From a plasmid: a DNA stretch of 64,000 nucleotides. The stretch lies in the sequence record NZ_CP028352.1; one strand, given 5' to 3'. A program made the translations under genes and the position numbers. The number at the start of each line of letters is the position of its first letter. Position 1 is the stretch's first letter. The notes beneath the pieces are model-generated. The model did not search any database. It was not told where the DNA came from and worked only from the letters and a program-made list of their open reading frames with translations. Positions 3,757 through 16,572 of the stretch are shown here, one piece after another.

Positions 3757-4208
3757 TCTGGTTTCACAGCCATTTTCTTACGCACCCGGTAATGCTGGTC
3801 TTCCTCGATCGCTGCAGCTATCCAGCCCGAAGCAATATTCAGGTCGATATCCGCAGGCAGACTCTCTGACAGTCTGTCCAGATTTACACCAGGTGACAGC
3901 TTTAAGATGAGGGACGCAAAGCCGGCCCATTCCTCATTACTCACGGGGCGCCATCCTCGTCTGAGTATTAGGTCAAACGCGGCCAAAGCTGCCCACAAAG
4001 GAGGCTGTTTGCGTTTATTCCACTCACTAAGAGCAGCACCAGGTACAGCAAGTTCTCGCGAAATGATATTCAGATGTCGCGCATGTTCGGTCAATGTTCT
4101 GGCTGCTTCAGCTGCACTTTGATCTTCGTCTTTTGCCCATCTATGTACGATACTCCCGCGGAACTGGGCAGATAGCTGCTGAAAAGGTGTTAATGAGTAT
4201 GCTGGCAT
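3753..4208 (-). CDS. Hypothetical protein (151 aa) co-transcribed with parAB.
   Basis: ORF abutting the parB stop (ATGA-style overlap at 4208). No recognisable motif. Confidence 0.45.
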   Translation of the reverse strand: MPAYSLTPFQQLSAQFRGSIVHRWAKDEDQSAAEAARTLTEHARHLNIISRELAVPGAALSEWNKRKQPPLWAALAAFDLILRRGWRPVSNEEWAGFASLILKLSPGVNLDRLSESLPADIDLNIASGWIAAAIEEDQHYRVRKKMAVKPE

Positions 4209-5332
4209 TATTCAGACCTCAGGCCTAAGAACTCTACATCGCTGGCGCGCACGTATAGCTCACCTTCAGCGGTATTAAGCCATATAAAACCAAATTCATC
4301 GGGCATCTTATGAAGCAGGACAGTCACTTCAGTACCGTTGAACTTCACTACTGGAATTAAAGGGAGTGGTACATCAGCGGCCTGATACTGGTGTTTTTTA
4401 TTACTGGAAGAAGTACTACCAGATTCAGTAATGAGAGCTTTCGCATGCGAAATCTCAGTTTTATTATCTGGCTGCAGAACATCATCACCACTCTGAGATT
4501 TCGCATGCGAAACCTTAGTAGGTGCTTTACTCACATCACGCCCCTTCAACCGATCCAGTTCCTTTTTTACCTGTACCCGGGTCAAGGTGCTGCCAGCATT
4601 ATGCTTTTCTATCAGTCGGTCTGACGCACCTGAATCTATGTTGTCGATCTGAATCAGCGTGTAAGCAAGATCTACGTCAGAGATAGATTTGTTTTTCAGC
4701 AGGGCCTTTATCTTTTCAGGTGCAGAGCCAATACGGATATGTTTGCTGACAAAAGCTGTAGGCTTGCCGAGTGAGCGGGCGATTTCCTCTCCTGTCATAT
4801 TGAAGTCGGTTTTCAGCTGTTCAAAGGCCAGCGCGGTCGCCAAAGGCTTGAGCCCCGATTGCTGCAGGTTCTCGATAAGCTGCCCCATGATGCGCTGCTT
4901 TTCATCTTTCGGCGGCCGGCCGACGTAGATATCAATAAATTCATCACCGCGCTTTTTCATTGAGCGGATACGCGTAGCGCCAAACCATACGCGGTAGCCC
5001 TTACGGTCTTTCGGAAAACAGCGAGGCGGCGTCAGGTTCCCGAACTCACTGAACGACTCAACCATGCCGGAAATGACCTCCTCATCAAAGTCATCTTCCG
5101 GACGAACCTGCTCGACCTCATAAATCTCATCCGCTCTGACGCGCACGATCTGCCCCTCAGGCTCCAAACCGGGGCGGGCAATTTCTGCCCGAATCTTTGA
5201 CGCATCAGGCGTTCCGACTGGAGCTGGTGTATCACGGGCTGCGACACTGGCAGCAACTTCTGGCATTGCGCTTACGGACGGACCTGAAGTTTTAAGTGCG
5301 TTTAATTTCTTCTGGAATTTACTCGCAGCCAT
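4208..5332 (-). CDS. parB: ParB-family partition protein (centromere-binding, ParB/KorB-like).
   Basis: The ParB-like N-domain and HTH region (...FGATRIRSMKKRG...GEEIARSLGKPTAFVSKHIRIG) are translationally coupled to the upstream ParA gene. Confidence 0.8.
   Translation of the reverse strand: MAASKFQKKLNALKTSGPSVSAMPEVAASVAARDTPAPVGTPDASKIRAEIARPGLEPEGQIVRVRADEIYEVEQVRPEDDFDEEVISGMVESFSEFGNLTPPRCFPKDRKGYRVWFGATRIRSMKKRGDEFIDIYVGRPPKDEKQRIMGQLIENLQQSGLKPLATALAFEQLKTDFNMTGEEIARSLGKPTAFVSKHIRIGSAPEKIKALLKNKSISDVDLAYTLIQIDNIDSGASDRLIEKHNAGSTLTRVQVKKELDRLKGRDVSKAPTKVSHAKSQSGDDVLQPDNKTEISHAKALITESGSTSSSNKKHQYQAADVPLPLIPVVKFNGTEVTVLLHKMPDEFGFIWLNTAEGELYVRASDVEFLGLRSE
4439..4452. promoter_or_regulatory. 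parS-like palindrome, copy B (TTTCGCATGCGAAA), inside the parB coding sequence.
   Basis: 14-bp perfect core with matching flank on one side. Confidence 0.55.
4511..4526. promoter_or_regulatory. parS-like palindrome, copy C (GATTTCGCATGCGAAA), inside the parB coding sequence.
   Basis: 14-bp perfect core, 60 bp from copy B. Confidence 0.55.
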
Positions 5333-6192
5333 CAGTGACCTCCCTGCGTAAGTTCAACAATCTTGTTACTGAGTTCCTGATACTGCAGCGCCGGCTTGCT
5401 TGAAGGAGAATACTCTTTGATGGTCATGCCCAGCTCAATGGCTTCTTTGGCAAGATTTTTCACCCATGAAATATAAGCCAGAACCGTTTCCGGTCCGTAA
5501 TTCTTCTCGTGCAGAATGTCGAACAGACGCTGCAGGTTCTCTGTTTCTACAGCGGTCAGGTAGCCATCGAGGAGAGGCTGATTGTAGTTCTGAACATTCG
5601 CTTGGGTAATATAAGTACCCAGGTATTTAAGTTCGGGATTGTAATTTTTACGAATGCGTTGCATGTACGACAGCTGCTTCCCGACGCCAATACGTGATGA
5701 TTTCTCCAGAAGAGTTGGGATCAGCAGATAATCAGCAACAAGATGAGAGGCAATCAGAAGGTTGTTATATTCTGGCGCCGAGTCGATAAAGATGTAGTCG
5801 TAGTGCTTACGCAGCTCACTGATGCGCTCTTTAAAGTCGAAAATGCAGTCCTGAGGACGATAGTTAATTTCGTGCAGCTCGTTGGTCGATCCAATGATAT
5901 GTCGTCCGTCAGGCAGGACATGAGGTTTAACCTCCGTGTCAGGAAAGAATAACTGATAGGCATTGGCTTCGCCTGGAGAGAAGGTATTACCCAGTGGATC
6001 TTTATCAATGGAAAGCGGCAGAGCATCAGGAAAGGTCCTTTCCGTAAGCCCTGATGTGGTATCAAAATCAATCATGCAGGTCTGCATTCCCATGACCTGC
6101 AGATTATAAGTCAGCTCATTCGTTGACTGAGATTTGACGACGCCACCTTTTTGATTTCCAACAATGATGACAATTCCTGCTTTTGCTTCCAT
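5332..6192 (-). CDS. parA: ParA-family partition ATPase (deviant Walker A).
   Basis: MEAKAGIVIIVGNQKGGVVKS (KGGxxK[ST]). Start moved to the ATG at 6192 (GAGGA SD at -8). The ATG at 6216 lies inside the parS-like palindrome and is probably spurious. Confidence 0.85.
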   Translation of the reverse strand: MEAKAGIVIIVGNQKGGVVKSQSTNELTYNLQVMGMQTCMIDFDTTSGLTERTFPDALPLSIDKDPLGNTFSPGEANAYQLFFPDTEVKPHVLPDGRHIIGSTNELHEINYRPQDCIFDFKERISELRKHYDYIFIDSAPEYNNLLIASHLVADYLLIPTLLEKSSRIGVGKQLSYMQRIRKNYNPELKYLGTYITQANVQNYNQPLLDGYLTAVETENLQRLFDILHEKNYGPETVLAYISWVKNLAKEAIELGMTIKEYSPSSKPALQYQELSNKIVELTQGGH

Positions 6193-6207
6193 AGCTACAT
6201 CCTCAAG

Positions 6208-6223
6208 ATTTCGCATGCGAAAT
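6208..6223. promoter_or_regulatory. parS-like palindrome, copy D (ATTTCGCATGCGAAAT), immediately upstream of the parA start. Candidate centromere/operator.
   Basis: 16-bp perfect palindrome, 16 bp upstream of the ATG at 6192. Confidence 0.6.
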
Positions 6224-6283
6224 AATTGTGATGGCTCGTCGCTGACTGGAGTACTTCATTGGCTGAAGGGGATATGCTCCATT

Positions 6284-6386
6284 GAGTCTGGCGTTTCGCC
6301 GTAATGTCAGCCGGCTACCCGGTGACCAACTCAGTATGCCAGGCCTATGATAAAGAATCAATAATGATTCTTTATCATAGGCCTGG
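6284..6386. repeat. Left copy of a ~100-bp direct repeat, ending in a 48-bp palindrome (CCAGGCCTATGATAAAGAATCA-ATAA-TGATTCTTTATCATAGGCCTGG).
   Basis: Matching sequence GAGTCTGGC(G/T)TTTCGCC(G/T)TAATGT(C/T)A(G/T)CCGGCTA(C/A)CCGGT... occurs at 6284-6338 and 7441-7496. The palindrome arms are perfect 22-mers. Confidence 0.7.
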
Positions 6387-6477
6387 CATGTGACTTTTAA
6401 TCCATTACACCTACTGACTTCGGCTTTAAATGCTCACTGAATCGTGAACGTAGTTTACGAGATTCAGGGTACCTGAC

Positions 6478-6520
6478 ATAAAAAAACCCCCTGTCCGCTT
6501 TAACGAACAGGGGGTTTTAT
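6478..6520. terminator. Bidirectional intrinsic terminator (AAAAAAACCCCCTGT...ACAGGGGGTTTTAT).
   Basis: GC stem of 8 bp with an A-run on one side and a T-run on the other. Lies directly 3' of the mini-ORF at 6520-6600 (minus strand). Confidence 0.7.
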
Positions 6521-6600
6521 CAACGCATTACTTCAATCAAAAAGATAATCACGCTGAGGGCAACACGAATTGCCTTGAGTGTAGTGATTAACACTTCCAT
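6520..6600 (-). CDS. Candidate type I toxin-like small hydrophobic peptide (26 aa, MEVLITTLKAIRVALSVIIFLIEVMR).
   Basis: Strong SD AAGGAGGA 5 nt upstream of the ATG, a single predicted TM helix, and an intrinsic terminator immediately 3'. No larger ORF lies in this 1.3-kb noncoding region. Confidence 0.4.
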   Translation of the reverse strand: MEVLITTLKAIRVALSVIIFLIEVMR

Positions 6601-6632
6601 AACGTCCTCCTTTCATTCAAGGACATTGCAAG

Positions 6633-6668
6633 GCGCAGCCAGCCTGAGGTTTCCCGCTGCGCTTTTTT
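6633..6668 (+). terminator. Plus-strand intrinsic terminator (GCGCAGC-loop-GCTGCGC-TTTTTT).
   Basis: 7-bp GC stem followed by a T6 run, ~35 bp beyond the mini-ORF start. A possible end of an antisense RNA overlapping the mini-ORF 5' region. Confidence 0.55.
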
Positions 6669-7440
6669 CCGTGTTGCTGGTTTTACAGTGTACAGACAAC
6701 ACGTTCAGCTCTGTCCCGGTGAGGCTGCGTGCATCATGCCAGTGATGCGCCGGGTAATGTTTAATCTATGTGCTAATGCTATCAGTCCGCCTTGTAAGGA
6801 AGAGCCAGATTCGCTATTCTTTGCGACACAGTGTACAGACAACATGTTCAGTGAAGTCTGAGGAATGATGAAAGCGTTGCCACGCTTCTGTCATTCCGGA
6901 AAAAGGGATCAGCATGCCAGCTGGTCCTTTTTTTTTGCGTCAGCAGAACCTGACCTCATCCAACCTGCGAGCAATTACTACATGTAGTGGTTACTCGCAA
7001 AGCTAATCCACTACATGTGGATAGATATTAGTGATTTACGGCGAGTTGACAAGAGCAAAAAATGATGGGTGGAGGGGTTGTAATTCTTGCGAAATTTCTT
7101 AGCCCACGCCTTGTAAGGCCTGGCATCGTGTCAACCGGATCAAACTTTTTTTTCTTAATTTGATCGGGCGCGTGTTTTTTTTCAGGAATGGCCATCTAAG
7201 AGCCCCAAACGCATTGTGAGCGACGCATTTTTTTTACTGGTAGCTTCTCACTAAATTTCTTCGTTTAAACCCTTTAGGTGGCACTAAAGCGAAAATACGC
7301 GCAATGCCGAGCATTTTGGCTGAAGCTAAGCCCGCAGTTAGACCGGTAGCTATACGGTTTATTACGAATAAAGCTTATAAAAATTCTGCCCACACAAAGT
7401 CCCAAAACGTCAGACGTGACAATTTCATGGCATCCTGGTG

Positions 7441-7538
7441 AGTCTGGCTTTTCGCCTTAATGTTATCCGGCTAACCGGTAACACAGTGATCATGCCAGCC
7501 CGCATTAAGGAATCAATATTGATTCTTTAATGCGGGCT
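7441..7538. repeat. Right copy of the direct repeat, ending in a 42-bp palindrome (AGCCCGCATTAAGGAATCAAT|ATTGATTCTTTAATGCGGGCT, 1 mismatch).
   Basis: Same upstream repeat body. The palindromes share the core AAGAATCAATA(A/T)TGATTCTT. Confidence 0.7.
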
Positions 7539-7539
7539 A

Positions 7540-7555
7540 ATTTCGCATGCGAAAT
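7540..7555. promoter_or_regulatory. parS-like palindrome, copy E (ATTTCGCATGCGAAAT).
   Basis: 16-bp perfect palindrome abutting the right-hand long palindrome at 7497-7538. Confidence 0.55.
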
Positions 7556-7577
7556 GTTAAGTGTATAGCGACGAGAA

Positions 7578-8654
7578 TTAATCATCATCCCATGCCTCTC
7601 TGCTCCCGCCGCAGAAGTCACAGCCAAACGCAGCACTGAGGTCAGGAACTGATGAACTATTGTAGGTGCAATAATCGCATGTGCTCAGTGATTTATGCAG
7701 CGTCAGGCAGGCTGTACAGAGATAGTTTTTACCAAACTCACATACTGTATCGTATCCATCACAGTCTGCGCATCCAGCCGGGACAGGGCTAAATATGCTG
7801 TTCTTTGTGAAGGGTTCGGTACTTATAGCGTTATACCTATCCAGTTCGCATTTGCAGCGAGAGCAGCAAAATTCTTCACCGTCCGCATGCATGACGTTTA
7901 ATTGCTGACAGTTCGGACAAATGACTTCCATATGTGCCTCAGTGCGATCGCAGACACAACACTGTTCCTGATAGAACCGCATATCGGGAAGAGGCTGGCT
8001 GCGAATAACCGCATCCTGGCAACAGATTACACACCGAGTAACGGAACGATTAGCCTTAAGCTCTGCGGCGATCAGCGTCTGCACACTTTCATGGCGGAAC
8101 TTTGCCCCGGCATAAAACTCACTGCTGCGTAGCATTCTCGTTTCATCCGTCGCCAGCTTCGCTCGTAATTGCCAGCCAAACAGGGATGACCAGTCCTCGC
8201 GCATCAGCCGGTTCAGCGCGAACCATGCATCCGCCTGCTCTGTCAGTACTTGCCGTTGGTCTCCTTCGCTAAGCTCATTGTGATAAAAGTGGACGACACG
8301 GTTCCGATGATTTTTAACTTTATTAAAAAGGTCAGCTGTCTTTTTGCTTAGCGGCTTTTCCAACACGTCTCCCAGGCGAGCGCAGGCCTCGTCATAGGTC
8401 ACTGACTGGAAATCCCCTGCCAGATATTTCTTGCGCTCCATTTTTTTTCCTGAGCAGGCCAACGTCCAGTGCTCATGAACCAGAGGAACCTTCATCAGGA
8501 TCTCTACGGCAGTCCAGAAGCTGACAACAGAAAATTTAGCCTGCCGCGACTGAAGCTCCTCACGCGCCTTATTCAGAAAATCGAGCCCGTTGGTGATTAG
8601 CGCCTCCGTTTCGGCTGTGAGCTGCTGGCCTTGTTCATCAGATTCGTCGTGCAT
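7578..8654 (-). CDS. HEPN-motif protein with a C-terminal multi-CxxC zinc-ribbon region (358 aa). Candidate RNase / abortive-infection effector.
   Basis: KNHRNRVVHFYHN fits the HEPN R[N]xxxH (Rx4-6H) motif in a predicted helical N-domain. The C-terminal 160 aa carry >10 CxxC pairs (CVICCQ...CPNCQ...CSRCKC...CADCDG...CTAC...CDYC...CDFC). Confidence 0.5.
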   Translation of the reverse strand: MHDESDEQGQQLTAETEALITNGLDFLNKAREELQSRQAKFSVVSFWTAVEILMKVPLVHEHWTLACSGKKMERKKYLAGDFQSVTYDEACARLGDVLEKPLSKKTADLFNKVKNHRNRVVHFYHNELSEGDQRQVLTEQADAWFALNRLMREDWSSLFGWQLRAKLATDETRMLRSSEFYAGAKFRHESVQTLIAAELKANRSVTRCVICCQDAVIRSQPLPDMRFYQEQCCVCDRTEAHMEVICPNCQQLNVMHADGEEFCCSRCKCELDRYNAISTEPFTKNSIFSPVPAGCADCDGYDTVCEFGKNYLCTACLTLHKSLSTCDYCTYNSSSVPDLSAAFGCDFCGGSREAWDDD

Positions 8655-8758
8655 ATTTTTCCTTCACTTTATTTGCCCTAGCCAAGAGGGACGGCAGCGG
8701 AATTTAATCGATCCGGCCGGGCATTGTGATACCACGAAGCCCGCTGCCTTCCCTGAAC

Positions 8759-10018
8759 TTATTCCAGTTCTTTATCTATGTCCTGCTGCATCCTTTCAAG
8801 GATTTGCGCGTCAATATTCTGTGTGAATAGCTGAACCTGCTGGGCAAGCTCGGTTACTTCATTTTGCCCGGTGGGTAACAGCTCACCATCCTTGTTCCTG
8901 CCGTTACGATGCACGATGTCATGCCGGCGTTTAACTGCGGCGCCCAGTAAGGGCAGCGACGACGGCGGAAACTCCGTCAGTAGCGTTTTGCTGAATATGT
9001 TCTTAGCCGTGTCCATTTTATGGAGTGACATACCGTCAAGCGCATCTTTGATGTCCGTATCGATGCGTGAGAGCTGATCATACAAATCAGAAATGGTAAT
9101 TTTTTTATCTTTGAAGGGTTGATAGCTCTCAACAAACCGCTGTTTAACCGTAGGGCGTGAGAAAATTTCGCGCTTCAGGATGTCACCCAGGTAGGCCTCC
9201 ATGGCAGTAATGATGCTGGCATAGCACATACTCTGCAGTGAGTGATTTTTTGGCTGAGAAGATGACAGATCCAAGATATCCTGGATTGATGCGCGGCAAT
9301 TCTTATGCGGCCACGTTTCCATCTCCGATATCTCTGCAACATCTTCAAAATTATCTTCATCATCTTCATTCAACAGCTCAGCAACATTTAGTTCGCAGAG
9401 CGCGCCGTCAGGACATGACGCGAGAAAAGCCACCACAAACTGCTCCCAGTCAGGCCCTGGAAAATTAAATACTCCGGTTGAAGGATAGTTACTATAGGTA
9501 GGAACATAACTAAGCATTGCGTTGACCAGAGGATTCTCGCTGAGATCGCTCCACCACGGCCCGTCGGAGTAATGCTCTTTAGCAGAATTTTTCAGCTCTA
9601 CGGCTTCCGGAAAAGCGGCAATCCAGTCGCGTAATTCCGTCTCTTTTACCGCCTTTACAAACTTGCTATAAACACGCTTATGTAACCTAGCGCGACGATT
9701 TCCCGTACCGGCTACAGCATATTCATCAGATTGATCGTTCAGTCTGTCTATCTCATTCTGCATCGTGCTGAGCATCTTCATCAGGCTCAGATCAAAATAG
9801 CGGTCACATTCATCCAAATCGTAACCAGCATGTGCCATACGTTCACGAATTTTCGCAACAGTGGTACGAAATCCATAGAAAAGATTGTAGATATTGGCAG
9901 CCTCGCCGGGCTTGGACTCAATAATCCTGTCACACTTCCTGAAGAACCAGCGGTCATACCTAATAGTAAATTCATGCACTTCAACACCGGCAATTATGAT
10001 GCCTGTAAAAGATGACAT
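8759..10018 (-). CDS. Hypothetical protein with a C-terminal HEPN-like motif (419 aa).
   Basis: C-terminal LGAAVKRRHDIVHRNG (Rx4H) in a helical ~150-aa domain. Same strand as, and immediately upstream of, the 358-aa HEPN/zinc-ribbon gene. Confidence 0.45.
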   Translation of the reverse strand: MSSFTGIIIAGVEVHEFTIRYDRWFFRKCDRIIESKPGEAANIYNLFYGFRTTVAKIRERMAHAGYDLDECDRYFDLSLMKMLSTMQNEIDRLNDQSDEYAVAGTGNRRARLHKRVYSKFVKAVKETELRDWIAAFPEAVELKNSAKEHYSDGPWWSDLSENPLVNAMLSYVPTYSNYPSTGVFNFPGPDWEQFVVAFLASCPDGALCELNVAELLNEDDEDNFEDVAEISEMETWPHKNCRASIQDILDLSSSQPKNHSLQSMCYASIITAMEAYLGDILKREIFSRPTVKQRFVESYQPFKDKKITISDLYDQLSRIDTDIKDALDGMSLHKMDTAKNIFSKTLLTEFPPSSLPLLGAAVKRRHDIVHRNGRNKDGELLPTGQNEVTELAQQVQLFTQNIDAQILERMQQDIDKELE

Positions 10019-10039: not shown

Positions 10040-10792
10040 TTAAGGCAGCATGCGCAGCAGTTGCAGAGACGCTTCGGTGTCCAGGCTGAAGCGAACCTGA
10101 TGACTGGCAGCCACGTCCAGGGCAAACACCTTCGTATAAACTTCGGTTGATTCAAACTTCTCATGCCCCAGCAGTGACTGCAGCACCTTCGGCGGCACGT
10201 GGTGATAGAGCATGTGCATCGCGAAACTGTGACGGAACGTATGGGGAGAGATTTCAATGCTGAACCGCACGCCGGCACGGGCAGCTGCATTGATGGCGCG
10301 GTTTATCCAGTTCCTCACCGTGCGATCGGAGACGGTCCAGACCGGCAGAGCGCGGCGCTCGCCGGTATCACTGTCGGTCTCAAATTCTTCCCTGACGCTG
10401 GCGAACAGCCGGCGCATCTCATCAACGTAAGCCGGATCGGAAAGCGGCACAACACGGTTGGGACTGGTTCCTCTTCTTGGACGTCCGCTGCCGGCGCGCC
10501 GCTGCTTAGCCGTGCGGATCACCACGTGCGGGATGGCGTCGTTCAGGCGAAAGTCACGCCGCCGCAGCGCCAGGACTTCATTGAGACGTCCGCCGGTGTT
10601 CCATAAAGTATTGACCAGCGCATGCTGGGTCCAGTCCGGTATATGGTGAAGCAGGCCGGTGATCTCAGGTGCCAGTAAGTAACGGGGCAGCTCGGTGTAT
10701 GCGGCGGCCATGGACCGCAGCGCGAGCGCACGACCAAAATCGGGCTGTGCAGCTGGCAGCGCGACCTGAGTATTGACGGATGGTAGCGACAT
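10040..10792 (-). CDS. resD: Tyrosine site-specific recombinase, ResD/XerD-like (plasmid multimer resolution).
   Basis: C-terminal catalytic residues HTFRHSFA...LLGHEKFESTEVYTKV (R-H-R-Y). 250 aa, typical for plasmid resolvases of the integrase family. Confidence 0.7.
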   Translation of the reverse strand: MSLPSVNTQVALPAAQPDFGRALALRSMAAAYTELPRYLLAPEITGLLHHIPDWTQHALVNTLWNTGGRLNEVLALRRRDFRLNDAIPHVVIRTAKQRRAGSGRPRRGTSPNRVVPLSDPAYVDEMRRLFASVREEFETDSDTGERRALPVWTVSDRTVRNWINRAINAAARAGVRFSIEISPHTFRHSFAMHMLYHHVPPKVLQSLLGHEKFESTEVYTKVFALDVAASHQVRFSLDTEASLQLLRMLP

Positions 10793-11265
10793 AAACCCTC
10801 TAAAAAAATGACAGCGCTATGCAAAATCTGGCGGGATTTACCCCTGCTGCTTTCTCAGATTTCACACAGCGACGTCAGCTCCTAATCTGCCCATTTTCCA
10901 CTGTCTGACGGGGCCAGACCACCGGAAAAATCCGCTGAGTGGTCCTGCTTCATTTTCCGACTTCCGGATATATACCATAAAACGGAACAAAACAGCAGGC
11001 GGGGGATGGGCAGGGCAGATCCTGAAAAGATCCGGTTATGCCTGGATAAGGGGACCAGTGTGGTGATCGGACACCGTATGTTGTGGTCCCGGCCCTGAAT
11101 CGCCTCCTGACGCGGGGTTTCCGGTTATTACAGAAAACGGAAAGCGTGAACCTGAGAAATGGAACGCAGGTGATCACTAAGATAATTCTTAACAGCTTAC
11201 TGCGATCTGAGTAAAAATTGCGCTACTATAGGGCAATACCGCTAATCAGGGATAAGGAGAGAAGA

Positions 11266-13467
11266 ATGGCTGTGCTTACTATCAGGGGTGTCAGGAGTTA
11301 CGGTGCCGACAGAGACGTCCAAATAGATCTCAGCAACAAAGTTACACTGATTTATGGTCAGAATGGGTCGGGAAAATCAACTATCTCAAATTATTTTTCT
11401 GGATATTATCCGGAAAAGTACCGCCAGTGCCGTTTTGAAAGTCAGGTAGAATTGTTTCCGCTTGTATTCAATCAGGATTATATCGAAAGAAAATTTAGTC
11501 TTGAGAACGTTCAGGCAGGAATTTTCACACTCAGCGAGCACAATAAAGATATTCAGGAACAGGTTGAGAGTCATAAAAAAAGAATCGCTCGAACAGATGC
11601 AAAGGTAAGCGAACTTAACATTGAAATCGCCGGGCGGGCGGAAATGGAGTTGACCCTAATAAATAACTGCGCAGCCAGAATGTTTAAAAGGACATCCGCT
11701 GACCGGACTCGATTCACGTCTTTTCTTACAGGAGCGAAGCAGCAGAGAAATTTCTATGAACGAATAAATGATATTCCCCTCACAGTCGCACAACTGAACA
11801 CGGAGGAACTATCTGCCCGTCTCGAAAACCTGCAGAAAAGCAAAGGAACAAGTTTACCTTATATCAACATTAGCCTCCCAACACAGCTAAATCCTGATGT
11901 GATCCGGCTAATTCGTTCACCGCTTCAGCCCGCGTCGGGGACGCTATTTGCCGGGTTTATTGCAAATCTGGGAAATGCCGACTGGGTCAGAGAGGGGGTT
12001 CGATTTATTCATGACGATGTCTGCCCTTTTTGTCAGAACTCATTTGATGCAGCCCATTTTGCCGAAGAAATAGCAAGGATGTATGACAAAAGTTACACCG
12101 ACGCGATCGAAGTAATAAAAAAGGCAGCGGTAGAAGTAGCGGAAAATATTGAATATCTCAATGATCTATCGGAGAGAGTTTTCAGACACCCCGCGGTAAA
12201 CGAAGGTGCAGAAGTTCTCAGCTCACTCAAGTTACTTATTCAGATAAATCAGTCAAACCTTCAGACAATATTCAAGAAAATCGAAAGACCTTCTGAGATA
12301 TACGATGTGGCTGAAATTTCTGAAGCACGCAACAGCCTCATCAGCAACATAGATAAGATAAACAATACCGTTTCTGCTAACAACCAGCTGGCCGATAACT
12401 ACGATGCCGAAATGGCGAAGTTAAAGGCTGATGTCGACACGTATCTGCGCCAGATTTGCGACGAGTATCTTGTGGCACTTACGACTGAACTTCAGGAAGT
12501 CAGGGCTCAGAAAATAAAAGCCGAGCAACAAGCCTCAGCTCTTTTGACTGAAAGAAGGCAGCTCGGGGAGCAAACGTCACGACTTATAGGGCAACTTTCA
12601 GTCATTCAACCTACCATTGATTCCATCAATAATAATTTGAAAGCATTGGGCGTAACGGACTTCCATATATGCTGCCATGACGAGAAGATGAAACTTTACC
12701 GGCTCAGACGTACAAGCGATCCAGGAGAACGGGATGTATTCAGAACGCTGAGTGAGGGTGAAAAAACCATCATTGCGCTGCTCTATTTTATCGAATCCTG
12801 CACCGGCAGTGTTACGCCTGATGCCGTCCACGATGGCCGGAAGATAATAATTATTGATGATCCGATATCCAGCCTCTCACATAATTACATTTATGAAGTA
12901 GCCTCGCTGATAAAAAGAAAAATTATTAAACATGACATAGCCCGCCATCTGATAATCCTTACTCATAACCTGTTTTTCTTTCAGGAAATTTTGCTGACGT
13001 CAGTTAGAAGGCTGGAGAGTAAACTTGATGCCCCTAAAGGCTGGTCACTGCTACGTATTATCAAAAATGAGCACAGCGACTGTATCCCTTTATCCATGCA
13101 CGAAATGCTTAACGAGTATCAGGCTCTCTGGCAGACGCTCAAAGACGTGCAGGACAACAAGAGTCAGGTTATTGTGCTGCCAAATACGATGAGGAATATT
13201 CTCGAATACTATTTCAGCTTTGCCTGTAAAGAAGAAAAGCTGGAAAAAACGCTTGCCGCTCTGGCTTCAGAGCACGCCGAGGGCTGTTATGATTCGTTCT
13301 ATCGGGCAATAAACAGACATTCTCATTCAGATGGCAGAAACATTCTTTCTACAGGCATTATGGATAAAAGCGAATATTTCAGGCTTTTCAGAAAGATATT
13401 TGAAGAAATGGGTGAACTGGCTCATTACTGCTCAATGATGGACGAAAAACTGGAGGAAGTGATTTAA
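11266..13467 (+). CDS. AAA_13/ABC-type ATPase with a CxxC 'zinc-hook' and coiled-coil, RloC/PrrC-like (candidate anticodon-nuclease defence protein).
   Basis: Walker A IYGQNGSGKSTIS, D-loop IIIIDDPISSL and H-loop ILTHN. CPFCQ lies before a long coiled-coil segment. The C-terminal region has MRNILEYYF (R-x3-E) followed by EH/RH residues, as in the PrrC/RloC nuclease triad. Start chosen at MAVLTIRG with an AAGGAGAG SD. Confidence 0.55.
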   Translation: MAVLTIRGVRSYGADRDVQIDLSNKVTLIYGQNGSGKSTISNYFSGYYPEKYRQCRFESQVELFPLVFNQDYIERKFSLENVQAGIFTLSEHNKDIQEQVESHKKRIARTDAKVSELNIEIAGRAEMELTLINNCAARMFKRTSADRTRFTSFLTGAKQQRNFYERINDIPLTVAQLNTEELSARLENLQKSKGTSLPYINISLPTQLNPDVIRLIRSPLQPASGTLFAGFIANLGNADWVREGVRFIHDDVCPFCQNSFDAAHFAEEIARMYDKSYTDAIEVIKKAAVEVAENIEYLNDLSERVFRHPAVNEGAEVLSSLKLLIQINQSNLQTIFKKIERPSEIYDVAEISEARNSLISNIDKINNTVSANNQLADNYDAEMAKLKADVDTYLRQICDEYLVALTTELQEVRAQKIKAEQQASALLTERRQLGEQTSRLIGQLSVIQPTIDSINNNLKALGVTDFHICCHDEKMKLYRLRRTSDPGERDVFRTLSEGEKTIIALLYFIESCTGSVTPDAVHDGRKIIIIDDPISSLSHNYIYEVASLIKRKIIKHDIARHLIILTHNLFFFQEILLTSVRRLESKLDAPKGWSLLRIIKNEHSDCIPLSMHEMLNEYQALWQTLKDVQDNKSQVIVLPNTMRNILEYYFSFACKEEKLEKTLAALASEHAEGCYDSFYRAINRHSHSDGRNILSTGIMDKSEYFRLFRKIFEEMGELAHYCSMMDEKLEEVI

Positions 13468-14156
13468 TTCTGACTTTGGTTTGAGGCATCATCACCTGCG
13501 GGCACCATTCACTTAACGATTCGGGAGCGAGCGCATGTGCTTACGCACATGTTCTACGCGCCCGAAACGAAAACGTGTATACCGGATAACCGGAACAATT
13601 TTCGGTTTCATGAGGCTTTCCTTTTACAAACCGGCTACTGCCGGAAGTCCCTGTACCCATTACAGGCTGGTAATGATCCAGAGGAGAACGCCCGAGGTGA
13701 CGATGTGACTATCATACAAAAAATGGCACCAGGTGTCATAATCTTCATGCATTTTTTACACCAAAAATCTCACAGAAGTTCGGCTAGTGCTGTTTTCAAG
13801 TTCCGACTTTGACGGAAAACGGAAAAGCGGATTTCTCTAAAGTGATAATGAATGAAAAAAAACCAATCGGGAAAAATTTCGGATGAGTCGTAGATAAGCA
13901 GGTTAGTATCAGCCTGAGGTTTAAAGATTATCTGCAGCCGGAGGCAGTATTAAGGATTTGATATCCAATTCTCACTCTGTTAGGTTATCAGGCACATCAC
14001 TACTCAGTGATGTTAGCTCATCTAGATAGACATTAATTCGTTTACACATGGGCATATTACTTTTTGTAGTACATTCTCAATTAATCATATACCATTAACA
14101 ATATTATGGCTTAAGTGTTTTGCCAATATTTAATCATACTAAAAAAGGAGTTACCG

Positions 14157-15317
14157 ATGCCAAACAATTGCAATTACTTATATTTAGAAGACGAAGTGTC
14201 AAATTGCCATTCCTTCATATTTCACATGGAAATTGCATCTTATTTATCTGTTACAGAATATGCTAGACAATCCGGAGGGAACATTGACGGGCAACGCCCT
14301 GTACTAAAATCACAAAGTGCTCGAATAATAAGAGACCAGATGACTGCCGACTTTAGAAACGGAGGGGTTTTACCTCCGGTAGTAATAGGCATGGTTGATC
14401 CTAATTTCAATTTAAGCTCCATAAAAACACCAGATGATATCTATAAATACATTGATACTAACAGAAAGGTACTTTGCATTATTGATGGAATGCAAAGAAC
14501 AGAAGCTATGATTAATGCAGGAGTTACTGCGCCCAGAAATGTTAGGGTCGAGCTTTGGTTGGTTGAATCATTAAATAAGTTGATTTATAGGATGCTCGTT
14601 TTAAATACAGGACAAGTACCCTGGACAATGCAAAAACAACTAGAAGTTGTAATGAATCCTGTCATAAAAACAATTCAAAGCAAAATACCAGGCATTGAAT
14701 TACCCACTACTGAAGATGCACAAAGAAGAACACAGGCAGGTAAGTACCAAGCAAGTAAAATCATTGAATCATTTTTAGTGTTTGGAGCGCGTTCAGAAAA
14801 AATAAATACCCGTGATTCGATCGCTGAAGAATATGCAAAGTTGGATTTTATAGAATCCTCATCAAAACAAGAACTATTAGACACTTATATTGATTTCCTT
14901 CGTAGAATTTATGAACTTGATGTCCAGCTTTGTAGAATTAATAAAGATAACTCAACTAGTGGAAAATTCAAAAAAGGTTCCGATATTTTAGGAAGCCAAC
15001 CTGCATTAATAGGGATTACAACAGCATTTGCTATAAAAATCCTTGGCCGGCCTAAATTGGACTTATCTGCAGAACAGCAAAACAAGAACAAGATAAGTAT
15101 ACTTTCAAATTTTGATCGATTTATTGTGCGTCTTGAATCAATGAATGAGCAAGAATTAACGGAATTCGTAAACTTAGAGGCGCTAAATTCAATGAGTCCA
15201 TCATCAGCTTCTACTAAGGTTGGTGACCAAGAAAGACAATTCTTTAAGGGGGCGTTTAATGTCTTGCTTGAGGATGAATTTAATGTTCCGAATATGGATG
15301 TATGTTGGGGTCACTAA
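14157..15317 (+). CDS. DGQHR-domain protein (DndB/ParB-nuclease-like superfamily), 386 aa, in AT-rich DNA.
   Basis: Motif VLCIIDGMQRTEAMI (DGxQR). AAGGAG SD 8 nt upstream of MPNNCNY. GC content is far below the flanking DNA, which indicates a foreign origin. Confidence 0.5.
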   Translation: MPNNCNYLYLEDEVSNCHSFIFHMEIASYLSVTEYARQSGGNIDGQRPVLKSQSARIIRDQMTADFRNGGVLPPVVIGMVDPNFNLSSIKTPDDIYKYIDTNRKVLCIIDGMQRTEAMINAGVTAPRNVRVELWLVESLNKLIYRMLVLNTGQVPWTMQKQLEVVMNPVIKTIQSKIPGIELPTTEDAQRRTQAGKYQASKIIESFLVFGARSEKINTRDSIAEEYAKLDFIESSSKQELLDTYIDFLRRIYELDVQLCRINKDNSTSGKFKKGSDILGSQPALIGITTAFAIKILGRPKLDLSAEQQNKNKISILSNFDRFIVRLESMNEQELTEFVNLEALNSMSPSSASTKVGDQERQFFKGAFNVLLEDEFNVPNMDVCWGH

Positions 15318-15318
15318 A

Positions 15319-16572
15319 ATGCATGAACATATTGAAGCATGTAGCTCTATAGCTAACTTACTAAATTTCAAACACTTTTACTCTGCTGAACAAGAAAGTA
15401 GAAGCATGACTAAAAGAAATCAAGTATTATTTGATAGTTTGAAAAACCTGTCTGAAGAAAACGGTTTTAACAAAAAGGAATATCCCTATCATGAAAAAAT
15501 ATGCATAGCAACAAATGATTCTGAAAAAGATTGGCTTAAAAATATCTCCTCCAGTGAAAAGGTATGTGCTGCTGATTTTGAAATAGTTAATGTTGGAAAT
15601 TGTTTTTCTGTATCCTACTTTTACTATTCCAGTGAAAAATACTTAATTGTTTCTGGCTTGAATGATGTATCCCTTGATGAGGGATTTGAATTTGAAGCGA
15701 TAAATTCAGGGGTTTTTACTTTATTTTCATCATTAAACTTAATCAAGTTTAAAAACATTAGCAATAATATAAGCAAAGTATATAACGAAATACTTAACAA
15801 AGATCCAGATTTAGCCGACCCTAAATTTGTGGATTTGAATAATATAATTAGTTATTTCGAGCCTACATATATATGCAAAATTAATAAAGAAGCTATATTC
15901 TATGAATTACAATTAGACCGTATAGCGGCTTATATTACAATGGCAATCACAAAAGATAACTACCCGACTGATATCCCTGTATTTAGTTTAATTAAAGATC
16001 TAATAATAACAGGAGAGCGTAGTATTAATTTCTCATATCTAGCTAAAGCAATATTTATTAAGGATGAGCCTTATTTGCTTTTTATGGAACTTTACAGAAT
16101 GCTGGAGAGAATATATGCAATTCCAACCATAAAAGCTCTTAAACATGAGTTGTGCATTGGAATGGATAGCCATTGGGAAATTATAAGCTCAATAGAAAAA
16201 ACCACTGGGTGGCGAAAGAAAGAGAACGAAGGGCTATATACACTACTATCACAATTAGAATACTCAATTCTTAATGACGCCTACAACACCTTGAATAAAA
16301 ACCATGGGGATTATTTCAACAATAGCTTAGTCATTAAAAAGCAAAAATTATTGCAAGATCTTGATATTAAGAGTGAATCTTATTCAAGTGCTTGCAGGGA
16401 GCTGGAAGAAGCTATAAAAGTTTGCCTTAGAGATTATATATATAAAACAAGAAATTCTTATGTGCATTATAGAGAGGCTTTAGAATCACAACTGGATCAG
16501 GGAAAAATACATTCTCTATGCGAGTCTTTATTAATGATAATTAATCCTATATATGTGAAGTTGGGAGTATGA
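15319..16572 (+). CDS. Hypothetical protein (417 aa) translationally coupled to the DGQHR gene; a possible C-terminal HEPN-like RNxxxH motif.
   Basis: The start is 2 nt after the upstream stop. IYKTRNSYVHYRE lies near the C-terminus. Very AT-rich. No other recognisable motif. Confidence 0.45.
   Translation: MHEHIEACSSIANLLNFKHFYSAEQESRSMTKRNQVLFDSLKNLSEENGFNKKEYPYHEKICIATNDSEKDWLKNISSSEKVCAADFEIVNVGNCFSVSYFYYSSEKYLIVSGLNDVSLDEGFEFEAINSGVFTLFSSLNLIKFKNISNNISKVYNEILNKDPDLADPKFVDLNNIISYFEPTYICKINKEAIFYELQLDRIAAYITMAITKDNYPTDIPVFSLIKDLIITGERSINFSYLAKAIFIKDEPYLLFMELYRMLERIYAIPTIKALKHELCIGMDSHWEIISSIEKTTGWRKKENEGLYTLLSQLEYSILNDAYNTLNKNHGDYFNNSLVIKKQKLLQDLDIKSESYSSACRELEEAIKVCLRDYIYKTRNSYVHYREALESQLDQGKIHSLCESLLMIINPIYVKLGV

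Follow-up and report, generated by a model that had tools for sequence, protein, structure and literature searches.

A candidate type I toxin-antitoxin locus that includes a divergent small RNA, beside the partition genes of Erwiniaceae plasmids

We analyzed a 64,000-nucleotide stretch of plasmid DNA (sequence record NZ_CP028352.1, hereafter the window), and in it the region 6200-7580, directly upstream of the partition genes parA and parB (5332-6216 and 4208-5332, both on the minus strand). The first-pass annotation, made from the sequence alone, had described here a 1.3-kb region devoid of long open reading frames (ORFs) next to a partition operon and had proposed that it holds a type I toxin-antitoxin (TA) locus. 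Both descriptive points were borne out, as no long ORF lies between the end of parA (~6192-6216) and position 7578, and Pfam confirms the identity of ParA and ParB (AAA_31/CbiA and KorB/HTH_ParB). The elements then reported are also present (Table 1): a 26-codon minus-strand ORF, a strong Shine-Dalgarno (SD) sequence before its ATG, at a spacing of 4 nt instead of 5 nt, a terminator immediately after it, and two copies of a repeat, here defined as a 24-mer, whose separation is 143 bp instead of 140 bp. To these we add a small RNA (sRNA) gene that diverges from the ORF and whose predicted 5′ end is complementary to the ORF leader.

Table 1. Features of the candidate module, in window coordinates.
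Feature	Position	Strand	Details
Intrinsic terminator of the putative toxin mRNA	6518..6483	minus	16-pair stem, then T-run; directly after the stop codon (terminator scan)
26-codon ORF, putative type I toxin	6520-6600	minus	Encodes MEVLITTLKAIRVALSVIIFLIEVMR; ATG at 6600, stop at 6520
Local hairpin holding the SD region	6601..6627	minus	9 bp, AAUGUCCUU/GAGGACGUU; from sequence and predicted fold
SD	6605-6613	minus	AAAGGAGGA, 4 nt before the ATG; read from sequence
Conserved leader hairpin	6633..6668	minus	GCGCAGC...GCUGCGC; a plus-strand terminator in the first-pass annotation
Repeat copy 1, putative sRNA target in the toxin 5′ untranslated region (UTR)	6685..6708	minus	85-108 nt upstream of the ATG
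sRNA promoter	6792..6820	plus	-35 TTGTAA (6792-6797), 17-nt spacer, -10 TATTCT (6815-6820)
Candidate toxin promoter (i)	6816..6842	minus	TTGTCT (6842..6837), 15-nt spacer, AAGAAT (6821..6816); start near 6810
~105-nt sRNA, putative antitoxin	6828..6936	plus	Seed, three stem-loops, A-rich linker, terminator
Conserved non-coding block	6937..7200		Accompanies the toxin/sRNA pair; motifs up to ~7200
Candidate promoter (ii), of the toxin or of a third RNA	7025..7052	minus	TTGTCA (7052..7047), 16-nt spacer, TAATAT (7030..7025)

The 26-codon reading frame and its mRNA signals

Throughout the 64-kb window, this ORF is the single ATG-initiated frame of 15-50 codons that combines an AGGAG-type SD with a downstream hairpin and T-run, and 20 shuffles of the sequence yielded no mini-ORF with both signals. 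Our comparison set comprised 18 related loci with enough sequence, from Pantoea and Erwinia plasmids and from metagenomes, which represent 15 distinct nucleotide sequences and five subfamilies; the ORF is intact in all 18. The subfamily peptides are MEVLITTLKAIRVALSVIIFLIEVMR, MNMLLVVLKAVRSAISVVIIIIELTR, MDAFLCVLKGLRTALSVVIFLIEITR, MDTVLNGLRALRMVISVIIFMIEMTR and close variants of these, encoded by 26 codons everywhere but in loci L009 and L003, where the frame measures 26-28 codons according to the start chosen. Among the 25 internal codons, the numbers of variable columns at codon positions 1, 2 and 3 are 15, 10 and 25, respectively. Between subfamilies, the proportion of differences at synonymous sites (pS) is 0.6-0.9, near saturation, that at nonsynonymous sites (pN) is ~0.3, and pN/pS ranges from 0.3 to 0.6. 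The ORF alignment contains no gap column although the DNA is only 59-64% identical, and the flanks are rich in indels. Eight residues (M1, L8, R12, V17, I19, I22, E23 and R26) are invariant. Such a pattern, in which the frame is intact in every locus, indels are lacking, third positions all vary and eight residues never do, indicates that the mini-ORF is a real, conserved gene.

The most conserved positions include the charged residues K/R9, R12, E23 and R26, which share one face of the helix, and the polar residues E2, K9, R12, S16, E23 and R26 all fall within a 120-degree arc of the helical wheel. With a grand average of hydropathy (GRAVY) of 1.64, a hydrophobic moment (muH) of 0.32 and a net charge of +1, the predicted product looks like a 26-residue amphipathic membrane-type peptide and a putative toxin. 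It matched no family of Pfam-A or NCBIfam at E-values up to 10, TisB, ShoB, Ibs, Ldr, Hok and Fst included. The resemblance to ZorO, ShoB and TisB suggested in the first-pass annotation holds for architecture and physico-chemistry but not for sequence.

The SD is paired in both the minimum-free-energy and the centroid fold predicted for the putative mRNA of 331 nt. Past the stop codon, a hairpin followed by a T-run is found in all homologs but L004, whose hairpin has no T-run, and the terminator stems differ compensatorily from one another (CCCCCTG/CAGGGGG, CCTCCTG/CAGGAGG, CCTGTCAGC/GCTGACAGG and CCCCGCC/GGCGGGG). The hairpin at 6633-6668 had been read as a plus-strand terminator 35 bp upstream of the mini-ORF, at which an antisense RNA converging with the toxin leader would end. 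Viewed on the plus strand, GCGCAGC...GCTGCGC is indeed followed by T6 in the window, and the stem is invariant in four of the five subfamilies, a different hairpin standing instead in L003. The T-run, however, is lost or broken in four of the five subfamilies (TTTCTCG in L002, TTTATCG in L004, TTTTCC in L013 and L019, absent from L003, which is plasmid pEA72), and no plus-strand promoter upstream of the hairpin is conserved among the subfamilies. The terminator scan did not call the hairpin because its loop measures ~15 nt. Consensus folding energies for the leader amount to -29.8 kcal/mol on the minus strand versus -22.8 kcal/mol on the plus strand, and the minus strand is favoured throughout the region. 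Given that neither T-run nor promoter is conserved and that the consensus fold prefers the minus strand, we read the hairpin as more probably belonging to the leader of the toxin mRNA, and the convergent antisense RNA is not supported.

A divergent small RNA complementary to the leader

Upstream of repeat copy 2, all subfamilies carry TTG(T/A)(A/C)A, a spacer of 17-18 nt and TATTCT, with the -10 hexamer ending 7-8 nt before the repeat. This TTGnnA-17/18-TATTCT element is the top plus-strand sigma-70 match, at the same aligned position, in seven of seven subfamily representatives. The predicted transcript would begin with copy 2 as its 5′ seed, the first 8 nt of which are predicted to be single-stranded, and end in a terminator composed of a hairpin (6905-6927) and U9 (U8-9) reaching to 6936. 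Folded as a single sequence, it gives -41.3 kcal/mol (z = -4.7), and in the consensus structure of 11 distinct sequences 95.9% of cells are paired. Five pairs, located in stem-loop 2 and in the terminator, change on both sides; the covariation score was reached by none of 500 shuffles, pairing collapses when the partners are slid, and several pairs are of the G-U type only when read on the plus strand. When 5000-9000 was scanned against Rfam at E-values up to 10, IstR, OhsC, OrzO, Sok, Sib and Rdl gave no match to the sRNA region; what the scan did return was a 17-bit ctRNA_p42d match on the terminator hairpin (E = 5.4), terminator-like matches at 6480-6530 and palindrome artefacts. We interpret these features as those of a conserved non-coding sRNA gene that adjoins the peptide gene and diverges from it.

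The two 24-mers (6685-6708 and 6828-6851) are the only matches in 64 kb at up to 3 mismatches, with 0 expected, and they are the best-conserved 24 nt of the module (83-92% identity versus 59-64% for the ORF DNA). Copy 1 has no promoter of the copy-2 type and always lies within the ORF leader, at a distance from the start codon that is conserved across homologs (75-85 nt); the spacing between the copies varies between loci (~140 or 216 bp). As the two copies share one DNA strand, the only partner for a transcript that begins at copy 2 would be a minus-strand RNA running across copy 1, that is, RNA of the ORF's strand. In the window the predicted duplex spans 24-25 bp (17 Watson-Crick pairs, a G-U pair, six Watson-Crick pairs and a second G-U pair), and seed positions 2-20 can pair in eight of eight distinct sequence combinations. 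Positions 6-7 are GT, AC or AT, are identical in both copies of a given plasmid and covary across subfamilies. Where the copies differ, three of the four transitions would give G-U in the predicted orientation and C-A in the opposite one. In L003, complementarity reaches into flanks that differ from those of the other subfamilies. Cognate seed duplexes have computed energies of -39 to -50 kcal/mol, against -16.9 +/- 2.5 kcal/mol for a shuffled seed; these values were obtained with a 30-nt seed, full-length RNAs in RNAduplex giving inflated, uninformative energies. The predicted fold of the mRNA places the stretch complementary to the free 5′ end of the sRNA in a hairpin loop. These observations argue that the repeats, mentioned only in passing in the first-pass annotation, are the antitoxin determinant, copy 2 being the 5′ seed of the sRNA and copy 1 its target in the toxin 5′ UTR.

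Interpretation, alternatives and relation to known systems

Our preferred interpretation, to which we assign a probability of about 0.65, is that the locus is a plasmid-borne type I TA module of the non-overlapping, divergent-sRNA class and belongs to an undescribed family. It is supported by the coding constraint on the ORF, by the promoter, covarying structure and terminator of the sRNA, and by the complementarity and co-variation of seed and target. Type I systems associate a genuine gene for a hydrophobic peptide of under about 60 amino acids with an adjacent sRNA of extended complementarity; the locus has the former (26 amino acids, 18 loci, GRAVY 1.64) and, as judged from sequence, the latter (24-25 bp duplex). 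The class in question, which includes TisB/IstR-1, ShoB/OhsC, Zor/Orz and DinQ/AgrB, is defined by an antisense RNA gene that lies on the 5′ side of the toxin gene, is encoded by the other strand and does not overlap the ORF, with pairing through a short repeated segment in the long 5′ UTR (PMC8594479). Here the sRNA would run rightward from ~6828 and the ORF runs from 6600 to 6520, with the target 85-108 nt upstream of the ATG. The original proposal is thus retained as regards a peptide with an RNA antitoxin in a maintenance region, now with good comparative support, but not as regards its cis-overlapping geometry.

In the mechanism that we infer, which takes in the toxicity, the repression, the relative stabilities of the RNAs and the transcription start of the toxin, a minus-strand mRNA of ~330 nt (longer if it starts at 7018) would carry the 26-residue peptide and end at 6518-6483. 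In the window subfamily, the primary transcript would probably be poorly translated because its SD is locked in a local hairpin. The strong conserved promoter at 6792-6820 would drive the ~105-nt sRNA rightwards from ~6828, and the 5′ 24-25 nt of this RNA would pair with the toxin leader 85-108 nt upstream of the AUG. By analogy with what has been described for IstR-1/tisB and OrzO/zorO, pairing would block translation, for example at a ribosome standby site, and/or trigger RNase III cleavage. If the sRNA were shorter-lived than the structured mRNA, plasmid-free cells would make the peptide and be killed or arrested, which would fit the fixed position of the module between the partition genes and the resolvase. 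A maintenance role by post-segregational killing is the most economical reading.

Several observations weigh against this interpretation. Neither the peptide nor the sRNA has sequence similarity to any known toxin or antitoxin family of Pfam, NCBIfam or Rfam. The SD is strong in the window subfamily only and is weaker in L002, L004, L009 and L003, and one difference between the copies in L003 would be a C-A mismatch in the predicted orientation. The concerted change of the direct-repeat copies could also reflect gene conversion or a DNA-binding protein. Finally, the interval from copy 1 to the sRNA promoter contains no well-placed sigma-70 promoter whose position is conserved. Candidate (i), which shares its -10 region with the sRNA promoter, is a weak match to the position weight matrix with a 15-nt spacer; it occupies the same position in most of the seven representatives, but this conservation is forced by the overlapping sRNA elements and does not constitute independent evidence. 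A partly covarying hairpin would stand at the 5′ end predicted from candidate (i). Candidate (ii), a strong minus-strand promoter of the form TTGTYA-16-TAnnAT that is kept in every subfamily, ranks first or close to first among the sigma-70 matches of its strand, and occupies one and the same aligned position, in all seven representatives. The first element in the path of its transcript would be the sRNA terminator read from the reverse side, where the hairpin has no more than 4-6 U after it; candidate (ii) may therefore produce a short third RNA, or a long toxin mRNA by read-through, or the two together. A toxin mRNA starting at 7018 would also overlap the sRNA in cis, which is a caveat on the assignment to the non-overlapping class.

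We regard as doubtful, though worth stating, a more elaborate version of the module in which all of the following hold together: a first horizontally mobile, plasmid-backbone member of the class, whose described members so far come from chromosomes of the E. coli group, wired with a bidirectional promoter and a third RNA. Toxin and antitoxin could be transcribed from one bidirectional promoter with a shared -10 region (TATTCT/AAGAAT, 6815-6821), in which case the choice of direction by RNA polymerase would set the toxin:antitoxin ratio. The third promoter (7052..7025) could send a convergent transcript into the sRNA terminator, to serve as an anti-antitoxin or as a long alternative toxin mRNA. 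If true, this would make the module a three-RNA maintenance cassette of ~750 bp whose parts always travel together.

Everything that the sequence shows about the two genes would fit equally well a small membrane protein that is tuned by the sRNA but is not an addiction toxin. Its role would then be in physiology or defence, for example as an effector of abortive infection, as a modulator of a membrane complex or in exclusion. Small hydrophobic proteins that are not toxins are numerous, and the module adjoins a defence slot of variable content and an island of defence genes (for HEC-08-like, HEPN/Toprim, PDC-S06 and Dazbog proteins). We nevertheless hold this alternative to be unlikely, because the locus in its combination of features matches known type I toxins (PMC2887945): an amphipathic helix of 26 residues bearing a charged stripe, a leader that is long and structured, an SD that is sequestered, an sRNA promoter that is strong and looks constitutive, and a location in the maintenance backbone of the plasmid. 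Furthermore, a decayed copy of the ORF that has no sRNA contains an in-frame stop, as would be expected if the unrepressed ORF were harmful.

The other alternatives concern individual elements. The 24-mers might be DNA sites for a plasmid protein (an operator, an iteron or an accessory site of a recombinase), their RNA complementarity being incidental: they are direct repeats with internal dyad elements (TGTACA, AACAYGTT), their neighbourhood is rich in repeats that resemble protein sites (parS-like palindromes, ACTACATGT boxes), and a single co-evolving bound protein would likewise yield concerted change in both copies. This explanation appears improbable in view of the fact that copy 2 begins exactly where the sRNA, which has a conserved promoter, covarying structure and terminator, is predicted to start, while copy 1 keeps its fixed distance within the ORF leader; moreover, the differences between copies are biased toward G-U-compatible changes in one orientation, complementarity in L003 continues into its divergent flanks, and only two copies, at variable spacing, exist in 64 kb. 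Still less probable is a short plus-strand antisense RNA that starts in or beside the ORF, ends at the 6633-6668 hairpin and its T6, and overlaps the leader in cis. Besides the T6 of the window subfamily, it could claim a weak plus-strand promoter-like sequence (TTAACA-17-TTTCAT, ending near 6616); this site was the only one found when a promoter for such an RNA was sought, and it is confined to that one subfamily. The RNA would measure ~45 nt and leave the SD uncovered, and the fate of the T-run in the other subfamilies, the terminator scan and the strand preference of the consensus fold all tell against it. As for the doubt, already voiced in part in the first-pass annotation, that an 81-nt frame that matches no protein family might be a chance ORF within a non-coding regulatory or origin-like region, it can hardly be maintained: frame, length and residue pattern are kept without gaps in five subfamilies of ~60% identical DNA, substitutions follow codon position, and shuffled sequence gives no such ORF.

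Like the present locus, zorO-orzO of Escherichia coli O157 (z3289/z3290, sRNA-1/2) has a small hydrophobic peptide (29 versus 26 amino acids), a long leader (~174-180 nt versus ~210 nt here if transcription starts near 6810) and an upstream, divergent, non-overlapping sRNA whose 5′ region includes ~20 nt of perfect complementarity to the leader. Between the two loci, no similarity in the sequence of peptide or RNA was detected (no match in Pfam, NCBIfam or Rfam), and zorO-orzO is chromosomal and present as tandem duplicates in E. coli, whereas our locus is single-copy on conjugative Erwiniaceae plasmids. In tisB-istR-1 of E. coli, a divergent non-overlapping sRNA also pairs with the 5′ UTR far upstream of the SD, and TisB is a short amphipathic helix with one polar/charged stripe whose GRAVY, hydrophobic moment and net charge nearly equal those of our peptide. 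The module differs from tisB-istR-1 in being plasmid-borne, in matching neither TisB (Pfam/NCBIfam) nor IstR (Rfam), and in having no LexA box (no CTG-N10-CAG site within 6300-7300), from which it follows that it is not SOS-controlled, unlike tisB and dinQ. ShoB, too, has 26 amino acids, but neither shoB-ohsC nor dinQ-agrB shows a sequence relationship to the locus, and dinQ is LexA-regulated with two sRNA paralogues, as opposed to one sRNA and no LexA box here.

The hok/sok locus of plasmid R1, as well as pnd, srnB and flm, are plasmid-borne and lie in maintenance regions, and the presumed role of the module would be that of hok/sok, namely post-segregational killing, with a membrane peptide made from a stable, structured mRNA that a small RNA keeps in check. 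Sok, however, overlaps the hok/mok leader in cis and works via the mok frame, whereas here the sRNA gene lies off its target site; no second conserved, mok-like ORF overlaps the leader, because indels break every alternative frame. Hok has ~50 amino acids and belongs to Pfam Hok_Gef, which the 26-residue peptide does not match. The locus thus resembles the non-overlapping class in its proposed working but is a separate family.

A 2010 survey reported type I loci with divergent non-overlapping sRNAs only from E. coli and its close relatives, and inferred that type I systems spread through lineage-specific duplication and not horizontal transfer (PMC2887945). Loci of this kind are hard to predict, and the present one would add a new family to the class, on conjugative plasmids of plant-associated Erwiniaceae, with comparative support that is unusually clean (constraint on the ORF, covariation within the sRNA, covariation of seed and target). 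The natural seed variants GT, AC and AT, together with a 26-residue peptide and a 24-bp duplex, form a ready experimental system, and annotators of these plasmids gain an explanation for a 1.3-kb "empty" stretch in the maintenance region. The finding of the first-pass annotation is real and better supported than could be known at the time; its architecture is corrected, and the locus is read here as a new family of a known kind of system.

Distribution and genetic neighbourhood

Megablast against PLSDB retrieved only two Pantoea agglomerans plasmids (92-95% identity), in which the region is unannotated, and a tblastn search of PLSDB with the peptide found just these two near-identical plasmids. 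Sensitive blastn added P. agglomerans p33.1_2 and Erwinia amylovora pEA72, which match only to the right of the ORF; both have a minus-strand mini-ORF and terminator at the same place, in DNA too diverged for blastn. Scans with the repeat pattern contributed four more genomes (P. anthophila, P. brenneri, Ca. P. alvi and Enterobacterales CwR94) and twelve metagenome contigs, all true homologs. No homolog occurs in IMG/VR or among 5,426 complete E. coli genomes. The 26-residue gene and the sRNA are unannotated in every record examined, searches of the full-text literature on type I TA systems in Erwinia and Pantoea and on pEA72 turned up no description of the locus, and a survey of Erwinia TA systems deals with types II and IV only. 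The decayed copy of the ORF mentioned above (L024, 2501-2593; P. agglomerans NZ_CP143422 and NZ_CP099733) retains a terminator, has an in-frame stop and is accompanied by neither sRNA gene nor repeats; it lies on a 38-kb mobilizable plasmid, ~1.3 kb from a tyrosine recombinase gene.

Close relatives keep the order umuC, orf151, ParB, ParA, module, variable defence slot and tyrosine recombinase, and distant relatives keep umuC, module and recombinase. A role of the module as a replication origin or replication-control region was considered and rejected: the IncFII-like repA/rep genes of pEA72 lie ~4 kb from it, so that the replicon is to be found elsewhere, and the coding nature of the ORF is clear.

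To the right of the sRNA gene, the conserved block at 6937-7200 is not coding, since 1-nt indels separate the subfamilies. Small ORFs within it (plus strand, 7062-7163; minus strand, 7028-7195; and an annotated coding sequence in L002) were discarded, their frames being shifted by single-base indels and not conserved. The L002 entry (NZ_CP083810, 3384-3608, "hypothetical protein") is probably a false gene call because its frame is not conserved in the other subfamilies. Two ACTACATGT boxes (6976-6989 and 7009-7020) occur in the block and look more like DNA sites than like an RNA hairpin, given that the hairpin between them is weakened in L001. Together with the strong conserved minus-strand promoter (7052..7025) and the boxes, the block could provide the toxin with its promoter, give rise to a third RNA or serve the nearby tyrosine recombinase as a recombination site.

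Direct repeats flank the module on both sides (6208-6390 and 7439-7555). They include a perfect palindrome of 16 bp, ATTTCGCATGCGAAAT, a repeat of 63 nt with 79% identity, and long palindromes at 6336-6389 (perfect, 25+25) and 7497-7538. The ParAB system probably uses these elements as centromere or operator sites, and the Rfam "mir-4659" matches correspond to the parS-like palindrome. The window's only strong LexA box, TACTGTACAGATAAACAGTA (1468-1487, 17 of 20 consensus matches), is near consensus and lies upstream of umuD. Between the module and the tyrosine recombinase (10040-10792), the variable slot at 7578-10018 encodes a Cys-rich 358-residue protein that matches the PADLOC candidate HEC-08 (E = 3.9e-143) and a 419-residue HEPN/Toprim-N protein. 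These two proteins are only 36-90% identical, or missing, where the backbone, for instance ParA, is 96-98% identical, and the slot looks like a hotspot for the exchange of defence genes. Further defence-type genes are found at 11218-16572, where an AAA_13/PDC-S06 protein (749 residues, E = 8.8e-233) is encoded together with a Dazbog-like DzbA/DzbB pair.

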